DNA of 16,004 bases from Planctomycetota bacterium. Its GTDB lineage: Bacteria; Planctomycetota; UBA11346. The translations under genes and the position numbers were made by a program. The DNA is taken from the NCBI GenBank assembly GCA_013816645.1, contig JACDEC010000017.1, positions 1 to 16,004 of the forward strand, read 5' to 3'. This document shows, piece after piece, positions 2,452 to 15,968 of the stretch (position 1 is the stretch's first letter; each line of letters opens with the position of its first letter). The notes beneath the pieces were generated by a model that made no database searches, was not told the DNA's origin, and worked only from the letters and a program-made list of their open reading frames with translations.

Positions 2452-3483
2452 ATGACGACGATGAAGGCGCTGGTCAAAGCCAAGGCCGAGCCCGGCCTGT
2501 GGATGCAGGACGTGCCGATGCCCGAGATCGGGCCCAACGACCTGTTGATCCGCATGCGCAAAACCGCGATCTGCGGCACCGACCTGCACATCTTCGCCTG
2601 GGACGAGTGGGCGCGCCGGACCATCCCGGTGCCGATGGTCACCGGCCACGAATTCGTCGGCGTCGTCGACCAGGTGGGCTCGGCGGTGCGCGGTTTCGCT
2701 CCCGGCGACCGCGTCTCGGGCGAGGGCCACATCACCTGCGGCCATTGCCGCAACTGCCGCGCGGGACGCCGCCACCTCTGCCGCAACACCCAGGGCATCG
2801 GCGTCAACCGCACCGGCTGCTTCGGCGAATACCTGTCCCTACCCGCGGGCAACGCCTTCAAGCTGCCCGACGACATCAGCGACGAATTGGCGTCGATCTT
2901 CGACCCCTACGGCAACGCCACCCACACCGCGCTGTCCTTCGACCTGGTCGGCGAGGACGTGCTGATCACCGGCGCCGGACCGATCGGCTGCATGGCGGCG
3001 GCGATCGCCCGCCACGTCGGCGCCCGCAACGTGGTGGTCACCGACATCAACGACTACCGGCTCGCCCTGGCCACGCGCATGGGCGCGACGCGCACGGTCA
3101 ACACCGCCAAGACCCCGCTCGAGCCGGTGATGCGCGAACTCGGCATGGTCGAAGGCTTCGACGTCGGCCTGGAGATGTCGGGCAACGGCCAGGCATTCAC
3201 CGGGATGCTCGCGGCGATGAACCACGGCGGCCGCATCGCCATGCTCGGCATCCTGCCCGGTCAGGTCGCGATCGATTGGAGCACGGTGATCTTCAAAGGT
3301 CTGGTCATCAAGGGCATCTACGGCCGCGAGATGTTCGAGACCTGGTACAAGATGACCGCCATGCTGCAGAGCGGCCTCGATCTCTCGGCGGTGATCACCC
3401 ACCGCCTGCCGGTCGCGCGCTACCTCGACGGCTTCGCGGCGATGCAGACCGGGCAATCGGGCAAGGTCATCCTCGACTGGTGA
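2452..3483 (+). CDS. tdh: L-threonine 3-dehydrogenase (Zn-dependent MDR family)
   Basis: 343-aa [53 protein letters not shown], Cys-rich structural-Zn motif [15 protein letters not shown], and Rossmann motif [11 protein letters not shown]. It starts 28 bp after the kbl stop. AGGA sits 5 nt upstream of ATG 2452. ATG 2461 would give the E. coli-like MKAL N-terminus. Confidence 0.95.
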
Positions 3484-3637
3484 CCGAGCTGGCGTGACCG
3501 CCGCAACGCTTGCGACGTTCCGTGGACGCCGAGCCGGGTGACGCACGCGCACGGGAGCGCCCAGGCCCCCTGCGGTCCGCCCTACGCACCCCGGCAGGAT
3601 TGGCTGCTAATTCCGGGCCTCCGCGCGGGAACAGTCC

Positions 3638-4164
3638 ATGAGCATGCCATCGAACGATCCGGTCGAGCAGATGAACCTGCTGTTCCTGCGCCATGCGCAG
3701 GCCATCCGCGGTTTCATCGTCTGCCTCGTGGCGGGCGACCAGGGCCTGGCCGACGACGTGTTCCAGGAGGTCTTCCTGGTGGTCAGCAGGCGCGCCGCGG
3801 ACTTCCGTCCCGACGGCGACTTCACTGCCTGGGTGCGCGGGATCGCCCGCAACAAGCTGCTGGCCGTGCTGCGCCAACGGCGCCGTGGTTTCGCGCTCAG
3901 CGAGGACGTCCTGGAACTGCTCGCCGCCGAAGCGCCATCGGACGACGCCTGGGACCGCCATCAACGGGCGATACGCACCTGCCTGGATGGGCTGGCGCCG
4001 CGCGCGCGCGCGAACTGGCCGATCTGCGCTTCACCGAGGAACTCAAGCCCGCGGCGATCGCCGAGCGCGTGCATTGGACGATCAACGCGGTCAACGTCGC
4101 CCTGTCGCGCGTGCGTCGCCAGCTGCGCGATTGCTGCGAATGTCGCCTGGAGACCGAACGGTGA
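3638..4164 (+). pseudogene. ECF (sigma-24 / FecI-like) RNA polymerase sigma factor, interrupted as sequenced by a frameshift inside a (CG)7 tract. Region 2 is in frame 2 (3638-~4011) and region 4 is in frame 1 (~4012-4164)
   Basis: Frame 2 gives LLFLRHAQAIRGFIVCLVAGDQGLADDVFQEVFLVVSRRAADFRPDGDFTAWVRGIARNKLLAVLRQRRR, which is sigma region 2. Frame 1 gives ELADLRFTEELKPAAIAERVHWTINAVNVALSRVRRQLRDC, which is the region 4 HTH, ending at TGA 4162-4164. The two halves join at CGCGCGCGCGCGCG (3999-4012). Removing one CG unit, or adding one base, restores a ~175-aa ECF sigma. Confidence 0.8.
3999..4012. repeat. (CG)7 dinucleotide simple-sequence repeat at the frameshift point of the ECF sigma gene
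   Basis: Direct read of ccgCGCGCGCGCGCGCGaac. The sigma reading frame changes exactly here. Confidence 0.9.
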
Positions 4165-5468
4165 CCGGCGCGCAACGTTGCGATGCGCTGCTCGACGCCT
4201 GGCTCGACCAGGGGGACGAAACAGCCGCATCCGAACTCAACGCCCTGCTGCGCAGCGACCCCTCGGCGCGTGCGCGCTACTTCAGCGCGATGCTGGTCGA
4301 TGCCGGGATCCGCGCGGCGCTCAAGGACGCGTCGACCCACGTGCGCATCGACCGCCTGCGCCAATCGGGACGACGGCGCCTGCGCCGTCAGCGCCGCAGC
4401 GATGCCGGCCGGTATGCCGCCGCCGCGATCGCCGCCACCCTGATCGCCGCCATCGGCCTGATGATCGCGTCCAGCCGCGGCCAGCGCAGCGCGACACCGG
4501 GCGAGGCGCCGACCGTCGCCGTCCGACCCATCGAATCGAGCGTCGCGGTCGGCGCTGAAGACGTCATCGCCACCCGCACCGACGCCGGTCCGCATCGGGA
4601 GATCCGAGCAGGCGAGACCATCGCCACCGGCGATACCCCGGTGAGGCTGGTCCTGATCAGCGACCGCACGCGCATCGATCTCTCGGCCGGGACCAGCGCC
4701 CGGTTCGCGCGCGAACGCCAGGGCGTGCGCGTGCACCTCGAACACGGCGGCTTGTCCGCCGAGGTCATGCCGCGCACCGCTGATCGGCCGTTCGTGGTCG
4801 AGACTCCGCACGCCAACGCCTCCGTGGTCGGCACCGCGTTCAGCGTCGCTGTCACCGGCCACAGTACGGTGTCGGTCGGGCATGGAGTCGTCGACGTCGC
4901 CTCCGGTGGAGCGAGCGCCCGCCTGTCGGCCGGCGACGTGGCGGCCTGCGCCCGGGGCGAGGCTCCCCGCGTGGCGCGGCGGGTCGACCGGGTGCTCGAG
5001 GAACTCGCCGACCCGGGCGGCTGGAACAACTGCAGTCTCGACCTGCCCCTGGTCAGCGGCGTCGGCGGACTGGTCGGTGGGCGCTCCCTCCAGATCCATT
5101 TATCCAGCGAGCGATCCTGGGCGGGCGCGATCTTCGCCCAGCGCCAGGATTTCTCGCCATACCGCGGGCTCAGCCTGACCTGCCGAGGTCAAGGCACAGG
5201 CGCGCTGTTGCTGGTCGAGGTCCTCGACAATGGGCCCCCGCGGCAGCCTGGCGAGAAGGACCAGGCTGAACGATTCTTCGCCGACCTGGTCGATGACGTC
5301 GCGGGATGGCGCGAGGTGCGCATTCCCTTCACCGCGTTCAAGCGGCGCGAATTGCAGATGCCAGGTGCGGCGAACGATGGACTGACCCTCACCGGAACCC
5401 AGGGATTGTCGATCCTGACCAGTCGGGATACCACGCTGTCGCTCGAGCGGATCGGGCTTTACAAGTGA
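4161..5468 (+). CDS. FecR-family transmembrane anti-sigma factor with an additional ~150-aa periplasmic C-terminal beta-sandwich domain (possibly CIA30/CBM11-like)
   Basis: GTG start at 4161 overlaps the sigma-factor stop (GTGA), which implies translational coupling. The N-terminus VTGAQRCDALLDAWLDQGDETAASELNALLRSDPSARARYFSAMLV is a typical anti-sigma N-domain. One TM segment YAAAAIAATLIAAIGLMIA spans 4413-4469. The FecR domain reads RIDLSAGTSARFARE...VHLEHGGLSAEV...FVVETPHANASVVGTAFSV. The C-terminal region from ~5020 reads WNNCSLDLPLVSGVGGLVGGRS...GWREVRIPFTAFK...LSLERIGLYK. Same frame as ORF-track entry 3693..5468. Confidence 0.8.
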   Translation: MTGAQRCDALLDAWLDQGDETAASELNALLRSDPSARARYFSAMLVDAGIRAALKDASTHVRIDRLRQSGRRRLRRQRRSDAGRYAAAAIAATLIAAIGLMIASSRGQRSATPGEAPTVAVRPIESSVAVGAEDVIATRTDAGPHREIRAGETIATGDTPVRLVLISDRTRIDLSAGTSARFARERQGVRVHLEHGGLSAEVMPRTADRPFVVETPHANASVVGTAFSVAVTGHSTVSVGHGVVDVASGGASARLSAGDVAACARGEAPRVARRVDRVLEELADPGGWNNCSLDLPLVSGVGGLVGGRSLQIHLSSERSWAGAIFAQRQDFSPYRGLSLTCRGQGTGALLLVEVLDNGPPRQPGEKDQAERFFADLVDDVAGWREVRIPFTAFKRRELQMPGAANDGLTLTGTQGLSILTSRDTTLSLERIGLYK

Positions 5469-5565
5469 TGCGAGCGTTGCGCCGCGAGTGATGCACCCCG
5501 GACAGCGGGCGCAGCCCACCGGCTAAGCGACACCCGAGCCGCGGGAATCGACGGCGGAGGCCGCC

Positions 5566-8307
5566 GTGCACTTAGCCCCGAGCATCGCTTTGATCTGCTG
5601 CCTGATCGCCTCGGCGCCAGCCAGCGATTACTACGTCAGCACCAGCGGGAATGACGGCAACGCCGGGACCTCCATGGCGAGCCCGTGGCAAACCATCGCC
5701 AAGGTCAACACCAGCAATTTCGTCGCCGGCGATCGCGTGTTCTTCGCGGGCGGCCAGACCTTCACCAATCCTGGCCTGATGCTCGACGCTTCGGATACCG
5801 GCTCCGCGGCGAATCCGATCGTCATCGGCAGCTACGGGACCGGACGCGCGATCATCCGGGCCACGGGCAACGTCGACGGTCTGTTCATCTACAACACCGG
5901 CGGCGTGCGGATCCAGGATCTGATCGTCGAAGGACCGGGCGTCTCCTCCAGCACCAAGAGCGGCATCATCGCCTACTGCGATCTCGCCAATGGCAGCAAG
6001 CTCACGGGTCTCGCAATCGCCAACTGCGAAGCGCGGCAGTTCCGGAACGGCATCATCATCGGCGCGTGGCATGCTTCGTTCAGCGGCTTCTCGGGCGCGC
6101 TCGTCGAGAACTGCGTCGCGCACGACAACAGCCGCTCCGGCATCAGCAGCTACGGCTACACGACGACCTCGGCCGCGGTGCAATCGCATGCCAGCCTCAC
6201 TATCCGTGGCTGCGAAACCTACCTCAATCGTGGAGACCCCCTCCATACCGCGAACCACAGCGGCAGCGGCATCGTGGTCTCCGGCACCGTCGGCGGACTG
6301 GTCGACCAATGCTACGCCCACCACAACGGCGGATCCGCCGGCAATCCAGGCGGAGGCGGACCGGTCGGCATCTGGACCTACCAGTCCGACGGGGTGGTGA
6401 TCCAACGCTGCCTGGTGCACGACCAGAAGACCACCGCAGGCGTCAAGGACGGCGGCGGCTTCGATATCGACGGCGGCGCGGTCAATGCCGTGATCCAGTA
6501 CTGCTATTCCTACAACAACGAGGGTCCGGGTTACCTGATCTGCGAATACAGCGGCGCCGACGTGCCGGTCTCCGCGGCCACGATCCGCTATTGCCTGGGC
6601 TGGAACGACGCGCGCCGCAGGGCCAACGACCAGGGCGCTGGGTTCGATTTCTACAACGGGTATGACGGCGACCCGAGCAAACTCACGGGAGTGACCATCC
6701 ACAACAACCTGGTCTACGCCGATGCGGCCGTAGCCGGTGCGTGCGTCAAATGGGAGGGAGGCCCGCTGGCCAACGTCCGCTTCGCCAACAACATCTTCGT
6801 CGTCACCGGCGGATCACGGTTCGTCGACATCGCGGCGCACACCGCCGATTTCAGCTTCGTCGACAACGCCTATTTCTCCAGCGATGCCAATTATTCCGGT
6901 GGCTGGAAATGGAGCAGCCTGACCTACACCAGCCTGGATGCATGGCGGTCGGCATCAGGCGCGCCCGAGACCTGGAGCGGGTCCCCGGTCGGCATGCAAG
7001 CCGATCCCCTGCTCGCCAACGTGGTCGGAGGTGCGCAACCGACCTCGATCGCGGCGCTTGAATCGATCACCGCCTACCGACTGCTCGCAGGCTCGCCGTG
7101 CATCGACGCCGGGCAGGACCTGAGGACCGCGGCGTTCGGCAGCCGCACGGTCGGCAGCCGGGATTTCTTCAATCAGACGATCCCCCAGGGCGGGGCGTTC
7201 GACATCGGTGCGCACGAAACCACGCCGGCGACTGCGAACACCGCGCCGACCATCAGTCCGATCGATGGCCAGGCGATCCTCGAAGATGCGCCGACCGGCG
7301 CGATCGCCGTCACCATCGGCGATGCCGAAACCGCGGCCGGTTCGCTCACGCTCGCGGCTGCATCGTCCAACCCCACCCTGGTGCCGATCGCCAACGTGGT
7401 CTTCGCCGGTTCGTTCGCCAACCGCACGGCGACCGTGACCCCAGCCGCGGACCGCAATGGCCTCGCCACCATCACGGTCACCGTCACCGATGGTGGCGGG
7501 CTGACCGCCTCGCGATCATTCACCGTCAACGTCACCGCGGTCAATGACGAGCCCTCCTTCGTCCCGGGAGCCGACCAGAATACCTACGCGGGCGCCGGGG
7601 CGCAGACCGTGGCCAGTTGGGCGACCGCAATCAGCGCTGGGCCGACCGATGAAAGCGGGCAGACCCTGACCTTCCAGGTCAGCGCCAACAGCAATCCCGG
7701 CTTGTTCGCCACCGCTCCAGCGGTGTCCCCCGCGGGGACCTTGAGCTACACGCCCGCATCCAACGCCAATGGAACCGCCACCATCTCGCTCATGCTGGTC
7801 GACAACGGCGGCACGGCGAACGGCGGCGTGCAGGCCAGTGCGATGCAAACGTTCATGATCGCCTGCTCCCCGACGCCATTGCCCAACCTGGTCGTGTCGC
7901 GCAGTTCGGTGATCATCGGCTCGGGTGGGACCGATCGGTGCAGCGCTGCGCTCGGCGCCAATACCACCATCGCCTATGTCCTCGCCAACAGTGGCCAAGC
8001 CGTGCTGTCGATCGCCACCGCGACCGTGGTGGCGCACACCGGCTGCATCGCATCAGTCAGCGCTCTGCCCGCCGCATCGGTCGTCGCTGGTACGACCACG
8101 GGAATGGGCGTCGATGTGACGCCGCAAGCGGCGAACTGGTCATTCACCATAAGCGTGACTAGCAATGATCCCGACACGCCGAGCTACGCCTGGACGATCC
8201 GCAGCAGCACTTCCACAGTAAGCACCGCCGCCAAGCCCTGCGGCATCGGCAGCGGCATCGCCCTGGTCCTCAGCGCTCTGGCGCTGACCTTCTTTCGTCG
8301 CCACTGA
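5566..8307 (+). CDS. Secreted/surface right-handed parallel beta-helix (pectin-lyase-fold, PbH1-repeat) protein with two cadherin-like/Big-type VNDEP domains and a C-terminal sorting-signal-like tail
   Basis: 913 aa. GTG start at 5566 with GGAGG at 5556-5560. N-terminus MHLAPSIALICCLIASAPA|SDYYVSTSGNDGNAGTSMASPWQTIAKV is the DUF1565-like start of beta-helix proteins. PbH1-like repeats include NNxF...GGFDIDGG...YCYSYNNEGPGYLI. C-terminus of the helix domain is CIDAGQD...GGAFDIGAHE. From 7231 to 7870 there are two ~100-aa repeats carrying VNDEPSF. The tail AAKPCGIGSGIALVLSALALTFFRRH* spans 8233-8307. Confidence 0.8.
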   Translation: MHLAPSIALICCLIASAPASDYYVSTSGNDGNAGTSMASPWQTIAKVNTSNFVAGDRVFFAGGQTFTNPGLMLDASDTGSAANPIVIGSYGTGRAIIRATGNVDGLFIYNTGGVRIQDLIVEGPGVSSSTKSGIIAYCDLANGSKLTGLAIANCEARQFRNGIIIGAWHASFSGFSGALVENCVAHDNSRSGISSYGYTTTSAAVQSHASLTIRGCETYLNRGDPLHTANHSGSGIVVSGTVGGLVDQCYAHHNGGSAGNPGGGGPVGIWTYQSDGVVIQRCLVHDQKTTAGVKDGGGFDIDGGAVNAVIQYCYSYNNEGPGYLICEYSGADVPVSAATIRYCLGWNDARRRANDQGAGFDFYNGYDGDPSKLTGVTIHNNLVYADAAVAGACVKWEGGPLANVRFANNIFVVTGGSRFVDIAAHTADFSFVDNAYFSSDANYSGGWKWSSLTYTSLDAWRSASGAPETWSGSPVGMQADPLLANVVGGAQPTSIAALESITAYRLLAGSPCIDAGQDLRTAAFGSRTVGSRDFFNQTIPQGGAFDIGAHETTPATANTAPTISPIDGQAILEDAPTGAIAVTIGDAETAAGSLTLAAASSNPTLVPIANVVFAGSFANRTATVTPAADRNGLATITVTVTDGGGLTASRSFTVNVTAVNDEPSFVPGADQNTYAGAGAQTVASWATAISAGPTDESGQTLTFQVSANSNPGLFATAPAVSPAGTLSYTPASNANGTATISLMLVDNGGTANGGVQASAMQTFMIACSPTPLPNLVVSRSSVIIGSGGTDRCSAALGANTTIAYVLANSGQAVLSIATATVVAHTGCIASVSALPAASVVAGTTTGMGVDVTPQAANWSFTISVTSNDPDTPSYAWTIRSSTSTVSTAAKPCGIGSGIALVLSALALTFFRRH

Positions 8308-8664
8308 CGACCCCATCTGCGCATGTGCACCGAGTAGTGCTCCCTTGAGCGCCTCGATCCGTGCGTGGTGAGTCAAAACCCCCCGGTCCATCACTCGACG
8401 TAAGTACCATTCCTGGCGCAGCCGAGCCTATTTTCCCTGCCTCCGCTCGCAGCAGGCGGGAGCGAGGTCCGTTCCGACATTCGCGCGAATGATCGAACGT
8501 GTGCAGTGACGCTGCTGCACCTCCGTCGGCATGAATTACCAGCCCTACGTCATGAAAAATGCATCACCGACCGTATGATAGTGCTAGTTTAATCATTTAT
8601 CCGGCGTCCTAGGCTCTCGCGCCCTATTGGTTTCGTGCAAAAAGCGAAATCTCCTGGAGTCGCC
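8308..8664. promoter_or_regulatory. Long, comparatively AT-rich 5' leader and promoter region of the large adhesin gene. Contains imperfect palindromes gtgcagtgacgctgctgcac and tgatagtgctagtttaatca, and possible -10 TATGAT
   Basis: 357 bp with no convincing ORF and far lower GC than its surroundings (for example catgaaaaatgcatcaccgaccgtatgatagtgctagtttaatcatttatcc). It lies immediately upstream of ATG 8665, which has GGAG at 8656-8659. Confidence 0.3.
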
Positions 8665-10206
8665 ATGTTTGAGCCAGTCCGCCTGACCTCATCTTTCCTG
8701 TCCAGTCGGCTGATCGGCGCGGCTGCGCTGGCATTGGCGCTGCTCTGCGCTGCACCAGCTCACGCAGCGAATGTGCGCTGGGACGGTGGCGGCGCGGATG
8801 GCCAGTGGTCGAATCCGCTGAACTGGAAAAATGACGCGGTGCCGGGTTCCGGCGACAGCGTCGCCTTTCCGGCCAATTACGTGACAGCGCCGCTGGCGGT
8901 GAATCTCAGCGCGCCGGTCACCGTCGGCGCGCTCACCCTGGCGACGTCGAGCCCAGTGAGCTTCACCGGCGCCACGATCACCGTGAACAAGCGGATCGTC
9001 GTCAACTTCGGCAGTCACAGCATCGCCAATGCGATCGACGGGAAGAATGGATCCGATCTGCTGATCATCGTCGGCACCGGCAGCTCGCTCGCGCTCAGCG
9101 GCGCCATCTCGGTCAGCAACAACAAGATCCTGGCGCTGACCCGCGACGGTGCGGTGACGATGTCCGGGGCGCTCAGCGGCACGGGCGTGCAACTGGTCGT
9201 CGGCGGGGCGGGCAGCCTCACCCTGTCTGGTGCGAGCACCTATACCGGATCGACCAGCATCAATGGAGGCACCGTGATGGTCGTGGCCAACGCGCCGGTC
9301 TTGGCCGCGGGTCCGTTCGGCGACGCCGCATCCGCCATCAACATCGGCAATATCGTCACCGCCGCCAACATCTCGATCCATGCCGCCAACGGCGTGACGA
9401 TCGGCCGTCCCGTCACGGTCTCGGCGAATGCGACCGGAAGCGTCACCGTGGGGGCAGCGAGCGGCGCAGTCAGCTTCGCGGGCGCGATCACCCTCGAGCG
9501 CGGAGCCACCCTCAGCGCACCTGCCGGTGCCACAGCGACGTTCTCGGGAGCCATCAGCGGCGCAGGCTTCGGCGTGACCAAGAGCGGTGCCGGCACCGGC
9601 GCCCTGGACAACGCGCTCAACACCTACACCGGCGCCACCACGGTGGCGGCCGGCGTGCTGCTCGCCAATGGCGCGACCCAGGCGACCGGGACGGCCGTCA
9701 GCACGGTCACCGTCGCCAGTGGCGCCACCCTGGGCGGCGCCGGTCGGATTGCCGGCACTGTCAGCGTCGCTGCAGGCGGCACCCTGGCTCCCGGCAATGC
9801 CAGCGGCATCGGCACGCTCACCGTCAATGGCGACGTCACGGTGCCGGCTGGGGCAATCCTGCGCGTGCACCTCAATGGCGCCACGCCGAGCCAATCCGGC
9901 AAGCTGGCAGTCACTGCCGGCACGGTCTCGCTCGCAGGCAACCTGGTGGTCAACCTGAGCCCGGCCTCGGTGTTCTCCACCGGGTGGACCATCCTCGACA
10001 AAGGTGCCGCAGGCGCGATCTCTGGCACCTTCGCCGGCAAGCCCGAGGGCGCCGCCTTCGCGGCGAATGGCCGCGGACTGCAGATCACGTACGTCGCGGA
10101 ACCAACAGCAACGACATCCTGCTCGCTGATATCGGACCGACCACCAACCCGGAAGTCCTCAGCCTGTCCCCCGCCTTCGGCACCACGCGCGGCGGCGACA
10201 GCGTGA
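8665..10206 (+). CDS. Large surface adhesin, N-terminal segment as sequenced: signal peptide plus autotransporter-associated beta-strand (PATR) repeat region. The reading frame breaks near 10093-10100 and continues in frame 0 (see next feature)
   Basis: ATG 8665 with GGAG 5 nt upstream. The ORF track starts at GTG 8635. Signal peptide MFEPVRLTSSFLSSRLIGAAALALALLCAAPAHA|AN. Then WDGGGADGQWSNPLNWKNDAVPGSGDSVAF, repeated LTLSGASTYTGSTSINGGTV-type PATR units, and the typical passenger end GTLTVNGDVTV...GRGLQITYV. The last ~36 codons before the stop at 10206 (AEPTATTSCSL...) are off-frame garbage. Confidence 0.75.
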   Translation: MFEPVRLTSSFLSSRLIGAAALALALLCAAPAHAANVRWDGGGADGQWSNPLNWKNDAVPGSGDSVAFPANYVTAPLAVNLSAPVTVGALTLATSSPVSFTGATITVNKRIVVNFGSHSIANAIDGKNGSDLLIIVGTGSSLALSGAISVSNNKILALTRDGAVTMSGALSGTGVQLVVGGAGSLTLSGASTYTGSTSINGGTVMVVANAPVLAAGPFGDAASAINIGNIVTAANISIHAANGVTIGRPVTVSANATGSVTVGAASGAVSFAGAITLERGATLSAPAGATATFSGAISGAGFGVTKSGAGTGALDNALNTYTGATTVAAGVLLANGATQATGTAVSTVTVASGATLGGAGRIAGTVSVAAGGTLAPGNASGIGTLTVNGDVTVPAGAILRVHLNGATPSQSGKLAVTAGTVSLAGNLVVNLSPASVFSTGWTILDKGAAGAISGTFAGKPEGAAFAANGRGLQITYVAEPTATTSCSLISDRPPTRKSSACPPPSAPRAAATA

Positions 10207-12686
10207 CCCTCACCGGCCTGCTGCTCACCGGCCCGTCCGGCGGACTGACGCCCACGGTGAGCTTCGCGGGCGTGGCCGGGGCGGTCACCGCGTCGACCCC
10301 GACCTCGGTCACGGTGACCACGCCGGACCTGTCGATCGGCGCTTCGACCCAACTGGTGGATGTCGCGTTGACCGTCAACGGCAACACCTCGACCGTGCTG
10401 CTCGGCTTCGAGTACCGGCGTCCCGTCCTGACCGTCACCGCCGCCAACGCCTCCCGCATCCATGGCACGGCGAACCCGGCTTTCGGCGTGTCCTTCGCCG
10501 GATTGGTCGCGCCGGACAGCGATCCGCTCGCGGTGGTCAGCGGCACGGTGGCATACGCCACCGCTGCGACGCCCACCTCGTCACCGAACGGCTACGCCAT
10601 CGAGCCTTCGGGCCTGACCAGCGCCGACTACGCGATCGTGTACGTCAACGGCCTGCTCACCGTCACCCAGGCACCGCCGACCATCAACTGGTCGACGCCT
10701 GCGCCGATCGCTTACACGACGGGTGGCGCGGCCCTGCCGGCCAGCGCGCTCAACGCCACGATCAGCGACGTCAATCTCGGTCTCGCGCTGACCGACCCCA
10801 CCACCGGGACGATCGCCTATACGCCGGCCTCAGGCACGCTGCTCAACGCCGGGTCCCACGCGCTCACGGTGACCTACACGCCGCTGATCGACAGCGCCTA
10901 CGACGACAACTGCCTGCAGACCAGTGGAACGGTGTACCAGATCGTCACGGCGATCCCGGTGACCATCACCTGGGCCAATCCCGCCGACATCACCTATGGC
11001 ACCGCGCTGGATGCGTCGCAGCTGAACGCCACGAGCGGGGGCGTCCCTGGCAGCTTCATCTACACGCCCGCGTCGGGCATCCGATTGTCCGCCGGCGACG
11101 CCCAGACGCTCAGCACCACCTTCACCCCCAGCGACCCCAACTACGCGACCACCACCACGACGGCCACGATCGACGTGCTGGCCAAGGCGCTGACCATCAC
11201 CGCCGATGACGCCGCCAAGGTCTACGGCGCAGCCAATCCCGATTTCGCCGCATCCTACGACGGTTTCGTCACCGGCGACGACGAGGACGATCTCGGCGGA
11301 AGCCTCGCCTTCGCCACCAGCGCCGACGCCAGCAGCGCGGTCGGCGACTACGACGTCACCCCGAGCGGGCTGACCAGCACCAACTACGTGATCGCCTTCG
11401 CCGATGGTACCCTGTCGATCACCGCCAAGGCGCTGACCATCACCGCCGATGACGCCGCCAAGGTCTACGGCGCAGCCAATCCCGATTTCGCCGCATCCTA
11501 CGACGGTTTCGTCACCGGCGACGACGAGGACGATCTCGGCGGAAGCCTCGCCTTCGCCACCAGCGCCGACGCCAGCAGCGCGGTCGGCGACTACGACGTC
11601 ACCCCGAGCGGATCGACCAGCACCAACTACGCGATCACCTTCGCCGACGGCACCCTGTCGATCACCGCCAAGGCGCTGACCATCACCACCGTCAACTCCA
11701 CCAAGGTCTACGGCGAAGCCAATCCCGATTTCGCCGCATCCTACGACGGTTTCGTCACCGGCGACGACGAGGACGACCTGGGCGGGAGCCTCGCCTTCGC
11801 CACCAGCGCCGACGCCAGCAGCGCGATCGGCGACTACGCCGTCACCCCGAGCGGGCTGACCAGCACCAACTACGCGATCACCTTCGCCGATGGCACGCTC
11901 ACGGTCGGCGCCAGGACCCTGACCGTCACGACGAACGCGTGCTCCAAGGTCTATGGCGCGGCCAACTCGGACTTCGCGGTCAGCTATACGGGATTCGCCA
12001 TCGGCGACGACGTCAGCGACCTCGGCGGCCTCCTGGCCTTCACCACCACCGCCACCGCGGCCAGCGCGGTCGGCGCCTACGACGTCACCCCGGGCGGACT
12101 GACCAGCACCACGTACGCGATCACCTTCGTGAAGGGCACGCTCACCGTGACCAAGCAGGAGCTGGTGGTGACCGCCGATCACAAGCTCGTCGCCAAGGGC
12201 GCGACCATCATCCCGGCCTCGCTGACCTGGACCGCGACCGGCTTCGTCGCCGGCGACGGCGCGGGCAGCGCCTTCAGCGGAGCGCCCGAACTCGGGACCA
12301 GCGCTGACGCCGCCACCGTCGGCTCCTATCCCATCACCATCGCCATCGGCACGCTGGCTTCGACCAACTACAGCTTCTCGCTGGTCGGGGGCACACTCGA
12401 CGTCTACGTCCTGGATGTGACCAGCATCACGGTCAGCGGCACGATCACCGGCAGCAGCGCCACGACCGCGACGATCAGCTCCGGAACCATCACCAAGACC
12501 GGATCGACCTGGTCGGCGGCGGTCCCTCTGCCCGGCGCAACGTCCAGGACAGTGACGGTGCAGGCCCACGATCGCGGCAAGCATTCCACCCTGCTGCCGA
12601 TCACCATCGACGAGGGTGATGTCCCGGTGCCGAAACCGTCCTCCAGCCTGCCGCCTGTGCCGCTGATGCCCGCGGCGAAGGGATGA
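9984..12686 (+). CDS. Large surface adhesin, C-terminal segment (frame 0): IPT/TIG domain followed by ~8 MBG/YG-type repeat domains. Genuine codons begin about 10096. ATG 9984 and the following ~37 codons are an artefact of the frameshift
   Basis: Frame 0 from ~10096 reads GTNSNDILLADIG, which completes the PATR terminal ITYxGGxxNDxxL consensus. Then PEVLSLSPAFGTTRGGDSVTLTG...VSFAGVAGAVTASTPTSVTVTTP, which is IPT/TIG. Then repeated units such as KVYGAANPDFAASYDGFVTGDDEDDLGGSLAFATSADASSAVGDYDVTPSGLTSTNYAITFADGTLSIT, which are MBG/YG-type. There is no C-terminal beta-barrel translocator domain. Confidence 0.75.
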   Translation: MDHPRQRCRRRDLWHLRRQARGRRLRGEWPRTADHVRRGTNSNDILLADIGPTTNPEVLSLSPAFGTTRGGDSVTLTGLLLTGPSGGLTPTVSFAGVAGAVTASTPTSVTVTTPDLSIGASTQLVDVALTVNGNTSTVLLGFEYRRPVLTVTAANASRIHGTANPAFGVSFAGLVAPDSDPLAVVSGTVAYATAATPTSSPNGYAIEPSGLTSADYAIVYVNGLLTVTQAPPTINWSTPAPIAYTTGGAALPASALNATISDVNLGLALTDPTTGTIAYTPASGTLLNAGSHALTVTYTPLIDSAYDDNCLQTSGTVYQIVTAIPVTITWANPADITYGTALDASQLNATSGGVPGSFIYTPASGIRLSAGDAQTLSTTFTPSDPNYATTTTTATIDVLAKALTITADDAAKVYGAANPDFAASYDGFVTGDDEDDLGGSLAFATSADASSAVGDYDVTPSGLTSTNYVIAFADGTLSITAKALTITADDAAKVYGAANPDFAASYDGFVTGDDEDDLGGSLAFATSADASSAVGDYDVTPSGSTSTNYAITFADGTLSITAKALTITTVNSTKVYGEANPDFAASYDGFVTGDDEDDLGGSLAFATSADASSAIGDYAVTPSGLTSTNYAITFADGTLTVGARTLTVTTNACSKVYGAANSDFAVSYTGFAIGDDVSDLGGLLAFTTTATAASAVGAYDVTPGGLTSTTYAITFVKGTLTVTKQELVVTADHKLVAKGATIIPASLTWTATGFVAGDGAGSAFSGAPELGTSADAATVGSYPITIAIGTLASTNYSFSLVGGTLDVYVLDVTSITVSGTITGSSATTATISSGTITKTGSTWSAAVPLPGATSRTVTVQAHDRGKHSTLLPITIDEGDVPVPKPSSSLPPVPLMPAAKG
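11181..12152 (+). repeat. Four tandem 243-bp (81-codon) MBG-domain repeat units in the adhesin gene
   Basis: Units start at 11181, 11424, 11667 and 11910, all codon-aligned. Units 1 and 2 differ at only ~8 nt. Unit 3 is ~90% identical and unit 4 more diverged. A fifth, degenerate unit follows (~12153-12395). Confidence 0.85.
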
Positions 12687-13036
12687 ACATCATGAACTCC
12701 CGCAACGGATCGACTCTCATGCGCAGACTGCTCCTGAGCTTCGGCTCCCGCTTCACCCTCCTGTGCCTGATGGCGGCGGTGGCGACCACCGTGGGCTGCG
12801 GCGGTGGGGGAGGAGGCGGGGGTGGAGGCGTGACTCCCACGGTCTCGCTCGGCAGCGTGACGCTCTCCGGCCAGGTCGAGTTCCCCGGCACCGTCGAGGT
12901 GCAGGTCGATGGCGCACCCGCGGTGGTCTCGGGCACCACCTGGACCTTCACCACCACCCAGGTCACGGCGATACGACGTGACGATGAGCGAAGGGGGCAC
13001 GCTGCTCGCCCATCGGAGCGTGGTGGTTCACGCTAA
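12683..13036 (+). CDS. Small putative lipoprotein with a Gly10 linker. Start and 3' end are uncertain
   Basis: ATG 12683 overlaps the adhesin stop (ATGA). Alternative in-frame starts are ATG 12692 (AGGG ~9 nt upstream) and ATG 12719 (MRRLLLSFGSRFTLLCLMAAVATTVGC, a classical-length lipoprotein signal with lipobox-like TVG|C). The Cys codon is at 12797-12799, followed by GGGGGGGGGG (12800-12829) and then VTPTVSLGSVTLSGQVEFPGTVEVQVDGAPAVVSGTTWTFTTTQVTA. The last ~23 codons use rare codons (ata, cga, agg, ggg, tca), so the true C-terminus is doubtful. Confidence 0.5.
   Translation: MNIMNSRNGSTLMRRLLLSFGSRFTLLCLMAAVATTVGCGGGGGGGGGGVTPTVSLGSVTLSGQVEFPGTVEVQVDGAPAVVSGTTWTFTTTQVTAIRRDDERRGHAARPSERGGSR
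12800..12829 (+). repeat. (GGN)10 tract encoding a poly-glycine run. Contains two G5 homopolymer stretches
   Basis: Direct read: ggcggtgggggaggaggcgggggtggaggc. Confidence 0.9.
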
Positions 13037-13172
13037 GAGACACCTGGCCCGGGCGAGGCTGGTGGACAAGGCAAGGCTATTAGCCCCCGAGGGATGGACA
13101 TAACGGTCCGGCCACCGATTCCGCTTCGATAACGTGCGCTGGGTATAGCATCGGTCGCCCAAGGCGAACCCG

Positions 13173-13931
13173 ATGGATGAGATGCTCACCGCCGCCACTG
13201 CCGTACCGACCGCATTGTTCAGCGGCCTGCTGCTGGTGGCGTTGGCCTACTGGCTGCTGGTGGCGATGGGCCAGATGGACATCGACATGTTCCACATCCA
13301 CACCGACCACGGCGAGGTCGGCGACCTCGGCCACCACGGCGCGCTCGACTTCCTGTCGATCGGCAAGGTGCCCCTGACCCTGCTGTTGACCCTGTTCCTG
13401 CTCATCGCCTGGTCGCTCTCGATGAGCGCCGAACTGTCGCTGCGCGCTCCCCTGTCGTCGATCCTGCCGTCCTGGGCCTACGCCACGATCGCCGGAGCCG
13501 GCGCGACCATCGCCGCGCTGTTCGGCACCGCGGCGGCCGCCCGGCCGCTGCGCAAGCTGTTCACGCTCGACACGGTGCACGCCCACCAGGCGCTGGTCGG
13601 CCGCCAGGCGACCATCACCTCCGGCCAGGTCGACGAGCGCTTCGGCACCGCGAGCATCGCCACCGACGGTCCCGACATCCTGCTCAACGTGATCTGCGCG
13701 ACCGGGATGCGCCTGGCCCGCGGCGAGCAGGCGGTGGTGGTCGAGCACGACGCCGAGCGCGACCTCTACCTCGTCGCGCCCCTCCCGCACCTGCGCCCCG
13801 GTTTCCTCGCCACCGGCATCGACGGAACGCCGGCCGAGCAGCCGCCAGCGCCGGTCCTACCGGCGGCGACGCTGCCCGCGAATCTTCCTGCCAACGCTGC
13901 GCCGCCGGCGCGCGCCACCGAATCCGCCTGA
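13173..13931 (+). CDS. NfeD-like / YqiJ-family (DUF1449) inner-membrane protein with a C-terminal OB-fold domain. Partner of the downstream flotillin
   Basis: 252 aa. AAGG sits 8 nt upstream of ATG 13173. Hydrophobic segments are LFSGLLLVALAYWLLVAMG, VPLTLLLTLFLLIAWSL and WAYATIAGAGATIAALFG. The C-terminal part GRQATITSGQVDERFGTASIATDGPDILLNVICATGMRLARGEQAVVVEHDAERDLYLVAP resembles an NfeD OB-fold. Gene order matches E. coli yqiJ-yqiK. Confidence 0.75.
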   Translation: MDEMLTAATAVPTALFSGLLLVALAYWLLVAMGQMDIDMFHIHTDHGEVGDLGHHGALDFLSIGKVPLTLLLTLFLLIAWSLSMSAELSLRAPLSSILPSWAYATIAGAGATIAALFGTAAAARPLRKLFTLDTVHAHQALVGRQATITSGQVDERFGTASIATDGPDILLNVICATGMRLARGEQAVVVEHDAERDLYLVAPLPHLRPGFLATGIDGTPAEQPPAPVLPAATLPANLPANAAPPARATESA

Positions 13932-13961: not shown

Positions 13962-15968
13962 ATGACCCCGCTCATCATCACCGCCGCCATCGGCGCTTTC
14001 CTGCTGATTCTGGTCATCGCCTTGAACGCGTTCTACCGCACGGTCGAGCAGGGCCACGCCCTGATCATCAACAAGCTCGGCCACCTCGAACCGACCGTGA
14101 CCTTCACCGGCGCCATGGTCATGCCGGTGATCCACCGCGCGGAGGTCATGGACATCTCGGTCAAGACCATCGAGGTCGACCGCAACGGCGCCAACGGGCT
14201 GATCTGCAAGGACAACATCCGCGCCGACATCAAGGTCACCTTCTTCGTGCGCGTCAACAAGACGCGCGAGGACGTGGTCAAGGTCGCCGGATCAGTCGGC
14301 GTGGCGCGGGCCAGCGACACCGAGACCCTGGCCGAACTGTTCGAAGCCAAGTTTTCCGAAGCGCTCAAGACTGTGGGCAAGCGCATGGAGTTCATCGACC
14401 TCTACAACCAGCGCGACACCTTCAAGGACGAGATCGTCAAGGTCATCGGCCGCGACCTCAGCGGCTACAACCTCGAGGACGCGGCGATCGACTACCTCGA
14501 GCAGACCCCGCTCAAGATGCTCGATCCCGACAACATCCTCGATAGCGAGGGCCGCAAGAAGATCATCGACCTGACCAGCACCCAGCGGGTCATGGCCAAC
14601 GAGATCCAGCGCGAGGCCGAGAAGACCATCAAGAAGCAGGACGTCGAAGCCAAGGAGGCGATGCTCTCGCTGGAGCGCCAGCAGGCCGAGGCCGAGGCGC
14701 GCCAGGGTCGCGAGATCGCCACCACCCGCGCCCGCGAGACCGCCGAGCAGCACAAGGTCGAGGCCGAACAGCGCCAGCTGTCGGAGGGCGCGCGCATCGC
14801 CTCCGAGCAGGAGATCGGCATCGCCCGCGAGAACGCCCAGCGCGAGGTCCAGGTCGCTGAGAAGAACCGCGAGGGCGCGGTCGCCGTCGAGTACGAGCGC
14901 GTCGAGAAGGCCCGCCAGCTCGAAGCGATCAACCGCGAGCGCGCGGTCGAGATCAGCGGCATCGAGAAGGAGAAGATCATCGCCATCGAGCGCAAGAACA
15001 TCGCCGAGGTGATCCGCGAGCGCGTCTCGGTCGAGAAGGCCGTGGCCGAGGAAGAGGAGCTGACCAAGAACCTGCGCGCCTTCATGGAGGCCGACCGCCA
15101 CAAGAAGGTCACGGTGGCCCACGCCGAGGCCGCGGCCGAGCAGGTGCGCATCAAGGAGGTCACCGCCGCGATCGGGTCCGAGCAGGCCGCCGGCCACCTC
15201 GCCAAGGAACGCATGATCACCGCCGATGCCGACCTCAACGCCGCCGAGAAGGACGCGCTGGCGCGCACCCGCCGGGCCGAGGGCATGCAGGCCGAGACCG
15301 CGGCGCCGGGCCTGGCCCACGCGCGGGTGATGGAGGCCGAGGCCGAGGCCCGCCGCAAGCAGGGCCTGGCCGAAGTCCACGTGCAGGAGGCGTCGGCCAA
15401 GGCGATCGAGCTGGTCGGCCAGGCCGAAGCCGGTGCGACCGAGGTCAAGATGCTCGCCGAGGCCAAGGGCCTGGCCGAGAAGGCGGTGTCGATGTCCAAG
15501 CTCACCGCCGAGACCAAGGCGCACGAGGAGTTCCGCCTGCGCCTCGAGAAGGAGTTCGAGCTGGCGCGCGAGCGCATCGCCGGCCAGGTCAAGGTCTCGG
15601 AGCAGAACGCCGTGGTGCTCGGCCAGGCGCTGTCCAAGGCGAAGTTCGACATCGTCGGCGGCGACGGCGAGTTCTTCGAGCGCTTCGTCAAGGCGGTGTC
15701 GGTCGGCAAGGGCCTCGACGCCACCGTGCAGCACAGCGAAACGCTCAAGATCCTGGGCAAGGACTACCTGAGCGGCGAGCAGAGCCTGCCCGGAGACGTG
15801 AAGGACGTGCTGCTCAACACCAGCATGGGCAGCGGCGACGTGAAGAACCTCACGGTCAGCGCGATGCTCTCGCGGATGATGGCCGGCAAGGATCCGGTCA
15901 AGGTCGACGCGCTGCTCGCCAAGGCGCGCGAGCTCGGGTTCGTCGACCATCCGAGCAAGGTCAACTGA
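13962..15968 (+). CDS. Flotillin-family SPFH/band-7 protein (YqiK-like) with an extended Glu/Ala-rich coiled-coil region
   Basis: 668 aa. GGAG sits 5 nt upstream of ATG 13962. N-terminal TM segment LIITAAIGAFLLILVIALNAF. The SPFH core reads QGHALIINKLGHLEP...MPVIHRAEVMDISVKTIEV...NIRADIKVTFFVRV. A long EA-repeat coiled coil (EAEARQGREIATTRARETAEQHKVEAEQRQ...) and a flotillin-type C-terminus follow. Confidence 0.9.
   Translation: MTPLIITAAIGAFLLILVIALNAFYRTVEQGHALIINKLGHLEPTVTFTGAMVMPVIHRAEVMDISVKTIEVDRNGANGLICKDNIRADIKVTFFVRVNKTREDVVKVAGSVGVARASDTETLAELFEAKFSEALKTVGKRMEFIDLYNQRDTFKDEIVKVIGRDLSGYNLEDAAIDYLEQTPLKMLDPDNILDSEGRKKIIDLTSTQRVMANEIQREAEKTIKKQDVEAKEAMLSLERQQAEAEARQGREIATTRARETAEQHKVEAEQRQLSEGARIASEQEIGIARENAQREVQVAEKNREGAVAVEYERVEKARQLEAINRERAVEISGIEKEKIIAIERKNIAEVIRERVSVEKAVAEEEELTKNLRAFMEADRHKKVTVAHAEAAAEQVRIKEVTAAIGSEQAAGHLAKERMITADADLNAAEKDALARTRRAEGMQAETAAPGLAHARVMEAEAEARRKQGLAEVHVQEASAKAIELVGQAEAGATEVKMLAEAKGLAEKAVSMSKLTAETKAHEEFRLRLEKEFELARERIAGQVKVSEQNAVVLGQALSKAKFDIVGGDGEFFERFVKAVSVGKGLDATVQHSETLKILGKDYLSGEQSLPGDVKDVLLNTSMGSGDVKNLTVSAMLSRMMAGKDPVKVDALLAKARELGFVDHPSKVN

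Follow-up and report, generated by a model that had tools for sequence, protein, structure and literature searches.

A probable glycan-response cassette of Planctomycetota: an ECF sigma factor, a FecR-type anti-sigma factor with a CBM11 module and a GH136-like beta-helix enzyme

The DNA stretch analysed here (contig JACDEC010000017.1, 16,004 bp, referred to as the window) represents an entire contig from a metagenome-assembled genome (MAG) of Planctomycetota and has a G+C content of ~69%; its proteins are deposited as MBA3683859-61. Positions 3606-8307 probably constitute a self-contained glycan-response cassette of three genes, which encode an extracytoplasmic function (ECF) sigma factor, a FecR-type anti-sigma factor ending in a CBM11 carbohydrate-binding module, and a secreted beta-helix protein predicted to be a glycosidase. 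A preliminary description of the locus had joined these genes to a downstream adhesin and a small lipoprotein as one surface-signalling module of six consecutive genes; we count five. The three-gene core of this proposal is supported, as the genes for sigma factor, anti-sigma factor and enzyme recur together in at least seven other loci, while adhesin and lipoprotein are not conserved neighbours.

Results

Conservation of the three-gene cassette

Loci related to the cassette were approached from three sides, starting from the anti-sigma factor, the enzyme and the sigma factor; a genome scan with a 3-sequence alignment yielded one locus. The gene order sigma, FecR-CBM11, beta-helix was found in at least seven other independent loci. 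In a different MAG with 59% GC (locus L002), the encoded proteins share 67% (sigma factor), 35% (anti-sigma factor) and 55% (enzyme) identity with those of the window. The same order occurs in L008, L009, the P0152 contig and L059, and the cassette is also present in L012; L010, L011 and L013 are partial copies. A distant version with two extra genes between the anti-sigma and the enzyme gene was found in L060 and L061. The flanking genes are different in every locus (kbl/tdh, NDK/iPGM, a GDSL esterase, an ABC transporter, AraC/oxidoreductase), so the linkage is not residual synteny. Gene-neighbourhood conservation, which the preliminary description had named as a check, was thus confirmed for the core trio.

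Around the L002 cassette (4940-8944 and 14537-18652), two BNR-repeat proteins, a GDSL esterase, a LacI/GntR-type regulator, a BD-FAE esterase and a sulfatase are encoded. By these surroundings, the locus looks dedicated to a decorated or sulfated glycan. The L060 cassette has a sugar ABC transporter upstream. The inserts of L060 (5372-6959; likewise in L061) encode a secreted stand-alone CBM11/CIA30-like protein (185 amino acids, aa) and a 333-aa helical protein.

The anti-sigma factor and its CBM11 module

The sigma factor gene (3638..4164, + strand) is followed by a gene for a FecR-type anti-sigma factor of 435 aa (4161..5468, + strand). Its GTG start codon at 4161 overlaps the sigma stop codon (4162-4164), which gives the GTGA junction noted earlier. 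Pfam detected FecR (PF04773, E 2.3e-12) and CBM_11 (PF03425, E 5e-7; 30.4 bits versus a gathering cut-off of 27) in this protein. In an AlphaFold2 (AF2) model with a predicted local distance difference test score (pLDDT) of 86.4, the protein has the layout of a FecR-type regulator with an N-terminal anti-sigma domain, a single transmembrane helix and a periplasmic FecR domain. By secondary structure, a cytoplasmic helical anti-sigma domain (residues 3-77) precedes the transmembrane helix (residues 82-105; both within 4167..4475, + strand). A low-confidence linker (residues ~107-132) leads to the FecR domain (residues 135-272; 4563..4976, + strand). The N-terminal block is conserved across 29 homologs and is missing from the shorter 335-aa call of NCBI.

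The FecR domain superposes on the C-terminal signalling domain of PupR and on the anti-sigma factor BDI_1681 with a root-mean-square deviation of 2.1-2.4 Å (Foldseek). E. coli FecR cleaves itself at a Gly-Thr motif that has been described for FecR and FoxR (PMC8144685). The corresponding residues G224 and T225 (4830-4835) are invariant in the alignment of the 29 homologs (A1); the motif is thus kept and self-cleavage is predicted.

The C-terminal residues 297-434 (5049..5462, + strand) form a beta-sandwich, the presumed sensor. The family profile built from A1 matched the solved CBM11 of C. thermocellum (CtCBM11; 1v0a/2lro) with E 3.6e-17 over the entire module, and Foldseek aligned the sandwich with the glucan-bound CtCBM11 structures 6r31/1v0a at a target-normalised TM-score (TMt) of 0.69. 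The extension, earlier described as beta-sandwich-like and distinct from an ordinary FecR C-terminus, is hence a CBM11 module by profile and fold. Relatives of the anti-sigma factor were collected by an exhaustive HMMER search, which gave 2,125 sequences; a word-indexed protein search, made with the anti-sigma factor by itself and with a 29-sequence profile, returned essentially only the query. Among the representative clusters listed, ~30 align to the anti-sigma factor over its full length. The combination of FecR and CBM_11 is shared by 27 of the 29 full-length family members. The CBM11-like module is also found outside the anti-sigma factors, repeated 3-6 times in tandem in large proteins (700-1,750 aa; P0003, P0005, P0008, P0011 and others).

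The module might instead be a protein-docking domain that contacts the enzyme or another envelope protein, much as classical FecR touches its transducer with the STN-binding end, so that the signal is relayed and not sensed directly. CIA30, an assembly-factor domain of the same fold, also matches 11 of the 29 family members, and in our reading of the alignment the ligand residues of CtCBM11 seem to be lost. Moreover, between the window and L002 the anti-sigma factor (35% identity) has diverged far faster than the sigma factor (67%) and the enzyme (55%), and L060 has an extra free CBM11-like protein beside its anti-sigma factor. Against a docking role, profile and fold place the module in CBM11, with glucan-bound structures as the best matches. 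The tandem copies in large proteins look to us like a habit of carbohydrate-binding modules, and the neighbourhoods of the cassette and of enzyme paralogs are those of glycan degradation (sulfatases, GH30, GH42, melibiase, sugar ABC transporters). We therefore regard docking as unlikely, and direct reading of a glycan by the CBM11 module as the better account.

No TonB-dependent receptor was matched among the scanned open reading frames (ORFs) of the window, in agreement with the earlier statement that no such gene is present. Likewise, no TonB-dependent transducer was found in the 20 kb around L002 or among the scanned genes of L008, L009, the P0152 contig, L059 and L060.

A predicted beta-helix glycosidase related to GH136

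The third gene (5566..8307, + strand) encodes a predicted secreted beta-helix glycosidase of 913 aa with a signal peptide and matches to Beta_helix, choice-of-anchor Q and Big_9/Cadherin_5. By profile and AF2/Foldseek, residues 20-556 (~540 residues; 5623-7233, + strand) form a catalytic domain resembling glycoside hydrolase family 136 (GH136), and Ig/cadherin-like repeats follow. A profile made from an alignment of 59 homologs (A4) gave strong matches solely to GH136 lacto-N-biosidases (E 7e-38 to 1e-39). The AF2 model of the beta-helix domain has a pLDDT of 94.9, and its best Foldseek matches were LnbX, BsaX and TnX (top 5gqc, 7v6i; TM-score 0.67-0.70, E 5e-16), at an identity of 18-20%. D295 and D302, within D295-GGGFDI-D302 (6448..6471, + strand), are invariant in the 59 homologs and fall on the DGQAWDAD motif when aligned with LnbX and BsaX; by conservation and this alignment they are the putative acid/base and nucleophile. 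The same distance of 7 residues separates the two catalytic Asp residues of ErLnb136, D568 (acid/base) and D575 (nucleophile; PMC7335108).

The sequence profile and the structural model together point to a glycoside-hydrolase-type enzyme related to GH136. They bear out the earlier view of a secreted beta-helix protein of hydrolase fold, and not of a phage-tail or autotransporter fragment. GH136 enzymes require a helical partner subunit or domain (PMC8106489, PMC7335108). Between 3600 and 8307, no helical GH136-I (LnbY) partner domain or gene was recognisable. Because of this and of the 18-20% identity, we call the enzyme GH136-like and not a member of GH136; it may belong to a separate family. 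The 333-aa helical protein of L060 was considered as a GH136-I analogue and rejected, having no detectable similarity to any solved structure. The beta-helix family is large; over 1,100 relatives score better than E 1e-10.

The enzyme ends in a tail (8230..8307, + strand; STAAKPCGIGSGIALVLSALALTFFRRH) of Cys/Gly residues, a hydrophobic helix and Arg residues, with the sequence KPCGIGSGIALVLSALALTFFRRH. The cassette orthologs P0152 and P0154 end similarly in GGGGCG..., hydrophobic residues and RRR. This shared Gly/Cys, hydrophobic, Arg pattern supports the sorting or anchoring signal suggested in the preliminary description, but no curated NCBIfam model of C-terminal sorting signals (MYXO-CTERM / GlyGly-CTERM type) matched the tail. 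A weak terminator-like site inside the end of the enzyme ORF (8270-8287) was not used, as the total count of such sites was below the shuffle mean.

A promoter-like motif before the sigma and the enzyme gene

A bipartite motif precedes both the sigma gene (GCTAAT-N17-GAA, 3606..3631, + strand), as a candidate autoregulated ECF promoter, and the enzyme gene (GCTAAG-N17-GAA, 5522..5547, + strand), as a candidate sigma-dependent promoter. The pattern GCTAAKN{16,17}SAA has exactly these two matches in the window (shuffle expectation 0.09), and it stands at the same two positions in L002, L012 and L059, the loci with a closely related sigma factor. Over 61 loci, 10 of the 12 matches are the two promoter sites of cassette loci; of the two stray ones, one lies on the minus strand in L002 and the other in L037. 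The spacer is exactly 17 nt long in all four anti-sigma/enzyme gaps, and its sequence is not conserved. In four of four orthologs, 9-10 nt separate the end of the second hexamer from the start codon of the sigma gene (window 3644; L002 9474; L012 2779; L059 1643). This distance argues for a very short leader and for ATG 3644 as the start codon, which is likely to be used rather than 3638. In L002 and L012 the second hexamer ends just 5 nt before the ATG of the enzyme gene. The spacing suggests that the cassette transcripts are leaderless or near-leaderless, and the placement of the motif before the sigma operon and a target gene suggests an autoregulated ECF regulon.

A conserved -35 element 16-17 nt upstream of GCTAAG was considered and rejected, since none is conserved there; GCTAAG is hence taken as the upstream hexamer, with SAA(T) 17 nt downstream. 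When the second hexamer was defined more strictly, the window gave zero matches. The search for a shared ECF-type promoter that had been proposed for 5566 and 8665 found the promoter-like motif before the enzyme gene, and also before the sigma gene, but none in the gap before 8665. A third GCTAAG on the + strand (13032-13037) lies across the stop codon of the lipoprotein ORF, with 136 nt to the next gene; it is probably there by chance, as it has no SAA partner at 16-17 nt.

A second element accompanies the motif. The TGACGCAC box (conserved box 1; 3539..3546, + strand) lies upstream of the sigma gene, and a TGATGCAC box (5489..5496, + strand) lies between the anti-sigma and the enzyme gene, with GCTAAG following at 25 nt. 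Exact TGAYGCAC is present in six of eight regions: ahead of the sigma gene in the window, in L059 and, inverted, in L012, and between the anti-sigma and the enzyme gene in the window, in L002 and in L012. The distance of 25 nt between gap box and GCTAAG is the same in the window, L002 and L012; L059 has TGAACCAC at 26 nt. In L002, L012 and L059 the box overlaps the anti-sigma stop codon (...YRE*). The window (5466-5500) has its anti-sigma stop 20 nt earlier (...YK*) and a second copy, CGCGAGTGATGCAC, behind it, as if a short duplication had shifted the stop while the box stayed 25 nt from GCTAAG.

The adhesin and lipoprotein genes are neighbours of the cassette

Downstream of the enzyme gene lie two genes outside the conserved cassette. 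The first (8665..12686, + strand) encodes a PATR/IPT/MBG adhesin in two frames, with PATR in the first and TIG and 6 MBG_2 domains in the second (Pfam). A C-terminal beta-barrel translocator of the classical autotransporter type was not found in the adhesin, in which only PATR, TIG and MBG_2 were recognised and which has a Pro-rich end. At 11181-12129, a 243-bp unit that encodes its MBG_2 repeats occurs 3.9 times in tandem (88% matches); this is a likely site of repeat-number variation. The second gene is a small poly-Gly lipoprotein ORF (12683..13036, + strand) with a GC(G)10 lipobox/poly-Gly stretch and no family match in Pfam or NCBIfam. Its ATG at 12683 overlaps the adhesin stop codon, as described earlier (ATGA). 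A start at M13 (12719) is more plausible and would abolish the overlap, which leaves the coupling uncertain.

As an alternative, all five genes, from sigma factor to lipoprotein, would form one sigma-controlled surface module. In its favour, the five genes follow one another on one strand, all are directed to the envelope, and two of them are frameshifted. But no PATR/MBG gene follows the cassette in any of the four readable related loci (L002, L008, L009 and the P0152 contig); the next gene encodes a phosphoglycerate mutase (iPGM) in two of them, an Ig-domain protein in one and an unknown 329-aa protein in one. A 330-bp gap of lower G+C with a sigma-70-like promoter (8552-8579) precedes the adhesin gene, and neither the GCTAAK motif nor the TGAYGCAC box was found before it. 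The genes are indeed co-directional, as had been pointed out; because the + strand carries every gene of the contig except that of a ClC channel, this is uninformative and no evidence for a system. A five-gene module is therefore very improbable, and adhesin and lipoprotein are an unrelated neighbouring unit, not members of the cassette.

Frameshifts in the sigma and the adhesin gene

The sigma factor gene is frameshifted. Sigma70_r2 and Sigma70_r4_2 lie in two frames (Pfam), and the unrepaired gene gave a split match to TIGR02989 (85.7 + 32.9 bits). A +2 shift is located in a (CG)7 tract (3999..4012, + strand), the window's sole dinucleotide repeat of at least 5 units; (CG)6 would be in frame. 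Removal of one CG from the tract gave a sigma factor of 174 aa, which aligned end to end with the intact L002 ortholog (67% identity) and passed the curated cut-off of TIGR02989 (126.8 bits, cut-off 124.55), the family to which all cassette sigma factors belong. In the adhesin gene, one base is missing at ~10090-10101, and a single-base insertion anywhere in this interval restores an ORF of 1,340 aa. This indel lies outside any repeat. It is also present in a second public record, GCA_020064125.1 (L001), which is 100% identical to the window over 6,871 bp; the record may derive from the same source reads as the window and would then not be independent. The earlier statement that only these two genes carry frameshifts was correct for both, and a third may have to be added: the G+C content at third codon positions (GC3) departs from the lipoprotein frame after ~12960 and goes on in another frame to 13103, so that a further frameshift in the lipoprotein gene is possible.

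Real decay, population heterogeneity or slippage, and assembly error are each possible causes. That the frameshifts are assembly or consensus errors of the metagenome bin, with cassette and adhesin intact in the organism, has a substantial chance of being right, somewhat short of even. The source is a MAG contig, the sigma shift falls within a GC dinucleotide repeat where consensus calling is prone to fail, and both ORFs, once minimally repaired, have no further stops and can be aligned in full. On the other side, the adhesin indel is not repeat-based and is identical in the second record, possibly not an independent one, and the larger genes (tdh, kbl, anti-sigma, enzyme) are free of indels.

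Phase variation, in which the (CG)n tract would act as a slipped-strand on/off switch of the cassette, is improbable. The shift equals exactly one unit of the only dinucleotide repeat of the window, and the L012 ortholog carries an in-frame (CG)6 allele at the same codons. These codons, however, merely encode the conserved Pro-Arg-Ala-Arg in GC-rich form, and synonymous changes interrupt the tract in L002 and L010, two of the four orthologs. In addition, 6-7 units are short for a contingency locus, and the adhesin shift involves no repeat. Judged from this codon comparison, the tract looks like a by-product of GC-rich codon use rather than a conserved switch.

Other features of the contig

At the left contig end, a partial gene for a ClC-type chloride channel runs off the contig (1 to ~920, - strand), followed by kbl (1236-2423, + strand) and tdh (2452-3483, + strand). 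Two ORFs on the + strand, 33-1073 and 1202-2455, were rejected as shadow ORFs, the real genes being the minus-strand ClC channel gene and kbl; for the GC-rich ORF 33-1073 no family match was obtained. To the right of the lipoprotein ORF lie genes for a membrane protein of 252 aa without family match (13173-13931, + strand) and an SPFH/Band 7 protein of 668 aa (13962-15968, + strand), maybe an NfeD-like/flotillin-type pair unrelated to the cassette. Rfam gave no RNA family across the whole window.

Discussion

A mechanism for the cassette can be proposed from its observed architecture, the folds, the conservation of the catalytic and Gly-Thr residues, the linkage and the cis motif. From these we infer ligand binding, proteolysis, sigma-dependence and substrate. 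The ECF sigma factor would be kept at the cytoplasmic membrane by the single-pass FecR-type anti-sigma factor, in which the CBM11 module would stand in for the last periplasmic subdomain, by which classical FecR proteins dock onto a TonB-dependent outer-membrane transducer. A glycan, or an oligosaccharide reaching the periplasm, would bind CBM11 and set off the FecR cascade of Gly-Thr self-cleavage, periplasmic trimming and cleavage by a site-2 protease. The released sigma factor would then transcribe from the two GCTAAK-N16/17-SAA promoters, that is, its own operon and the adjacent enzyme gene. The induced enzyme, a beta-helix protein related to GH136, would be a retaining glycosidase that is secreted and probably anchored at the surface; it may attack the sensed glycan, and the products could feed the sensor.

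Several points weigh against this account. The sigma gene of the window is broken by one extra CG unit, so that the switch would be off in this contig if the sequence is correct. The module shares only ~17% identity with CtCBM11, and in our own reading of the alignment there are no tyrosines at what we take to be the ligand-contact tyrosines of CtCBM11, an assumption for which the literature gave us no confirmation. The module may bind a non-glycan partner. No helical partner of the kind required by GH136 enzymes is recognisable in the window. The promoter-like motif was discovered post hoc and does not resemble the common ECF 'AAC ... CGT' pattern. Enzyme homologs with 48-52% identity occur without the sigma/anti-sigma pair (L003, L004, L005, L007); their neighbours include GH30, GH42, melibiase and sulfatases, as in loci for glycan degradation. 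Finally, in one FecR-CBM11 locus (P0023) the enzyme gene is not directly downstream. Taking these points together with the recurrence of the trio, we still consider the three-gene glycan-response cassette probable. A wider formulation is offered more tentatively, and we think it somewhat less likely to hold than to fail: a TonB-independent branch of FecR signalling in Planctomycetota, combining glycan reading by CBM11, a near-leaderless promoter of the GCTAAG-N17-CAAT-like type, a GH136-related glycosidase displayed by its Cys tail and, in GC-rich lineages, a slippage-prone CG tract in the sigma gene by which the system can be turned off.

To our knowledge, little has been worked out on how planctomycetes and related bacteria sense the complex, often sulfated glycans that they degrade. 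The literature search, with few checks on planctomycete glycan sensing, found no paper that combines FecR with CBM11 or describes the cassette. With a predicted sensor, a predicted promoter and a single enzyme target, the compact cassette is a tractable entry point, and what its CBM11 module binds should give a clue to the substrate of the beta-helix glycosidases, a large family that is so far uncharacterised. If the proposed mechanism is true, FecR-type anti-sigma factors are able to work without a TonB-dependent transducer, and the cassette is a diderm counterpart of the clostridial RsgI/SigI systems built from different parts. The sigma/anti-sigma pair could also become an orthogonal glycan-responsive switch.

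The nearest homologous system is FecI/FecR/FecA-type signalling (E. coli Fec, Pseudomonas Fox, Pup). As in these systems, the ECF sigma gene of the cassette overlaps the start of the gene for a single-pass anti-sigma factor, which has a FecR domain superposable on PupR and BDI_1681 and a Gly-Thr motif, and sigma factor and target gene share a promoter-like motif that suggests autoregulation. Unlike Fec, Fox and Pup, the cassette has no TonB-dependent transducer in the window or in the scanned cassette loci. Compared with Fec, residues 297-434 of its anti-sigma factor form a CBM11 module and not an STN-type transducer-binding subdomain, the sigma factor belongs to the planctomycete/verrucomicrobial family TIGR02989 (Rhodopirellula/Verrucomicrobium) and not to the FecI models, and the target is a predicted glycosidase and not an iron transporter.

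Polysaccharide-utilisation pairs of Bacteroidetes signal via SusC-like TonB-dependent transducers. The cassette differs from them in having no such transducer and in an anti-sigma factor that itself bears the carbohydrate-binding module. Pairs of FecR-like anti-sigma and ECF sigma factors of Bacteroidetes ECF10 (original group)/ECF240 have been linked to the scavenging of carbohydrates (PMC7826278).

In function, the cassette comes closest to RsgI/SigI of C. thermocellum. RsgI anti-sigma factors are described as carrying extracytoplasmic carbohydrate-binding modules that sense polysaccharides directly, and activation by autoproteolysis and RseP as turning on glycan-degrading enzymes (PMC10328401, PMC12203970, PMC6852018). 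The cassette follows the same logic, with a membrane anti-sigma factor that carries a carbohydrate-binding module beside a glycan-enzyme target. Unlike SigI and RsgI_N, its proteins come from unrelated families, ECF sigma and FecR, and the likeness is functional only. SigI/RsgI systems belong to Gram-positive bacteria and control cellulosome genes, whereas the host of the cassette is diderm. With a diderm envelope and a sensor in the periplasm, the cassette must see imported or released oligosaccharides.

The enzyme resembles GH136 members (LnbX, BsaX, TnX, ErLnb136) in being a predicted secreted protein with a right-handed beta-helix and a conserved D-x6-D pair. It differs from them in its low identity (18-20%), in having no recognisable LnbY/GH136-I partner and in its origin from environmental Planctomycetota/Verrucomicrobia loci rich in sulfatases and other glycosidases. 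CtCBM11, from Lic26A-Cel5E, belongs to the type B modules, which bind glycan chains along internal stretches (PMC8612152). The module of the cassette matches it in full-module profile and fold, but is fused to a signalling protein and not to an enzyme, and at ~17% identity its specificity for beta-1,3-1,4-glucan is not to be assumed. Altogether, the cassette follows a known signalling logic in a variant not characterised before.

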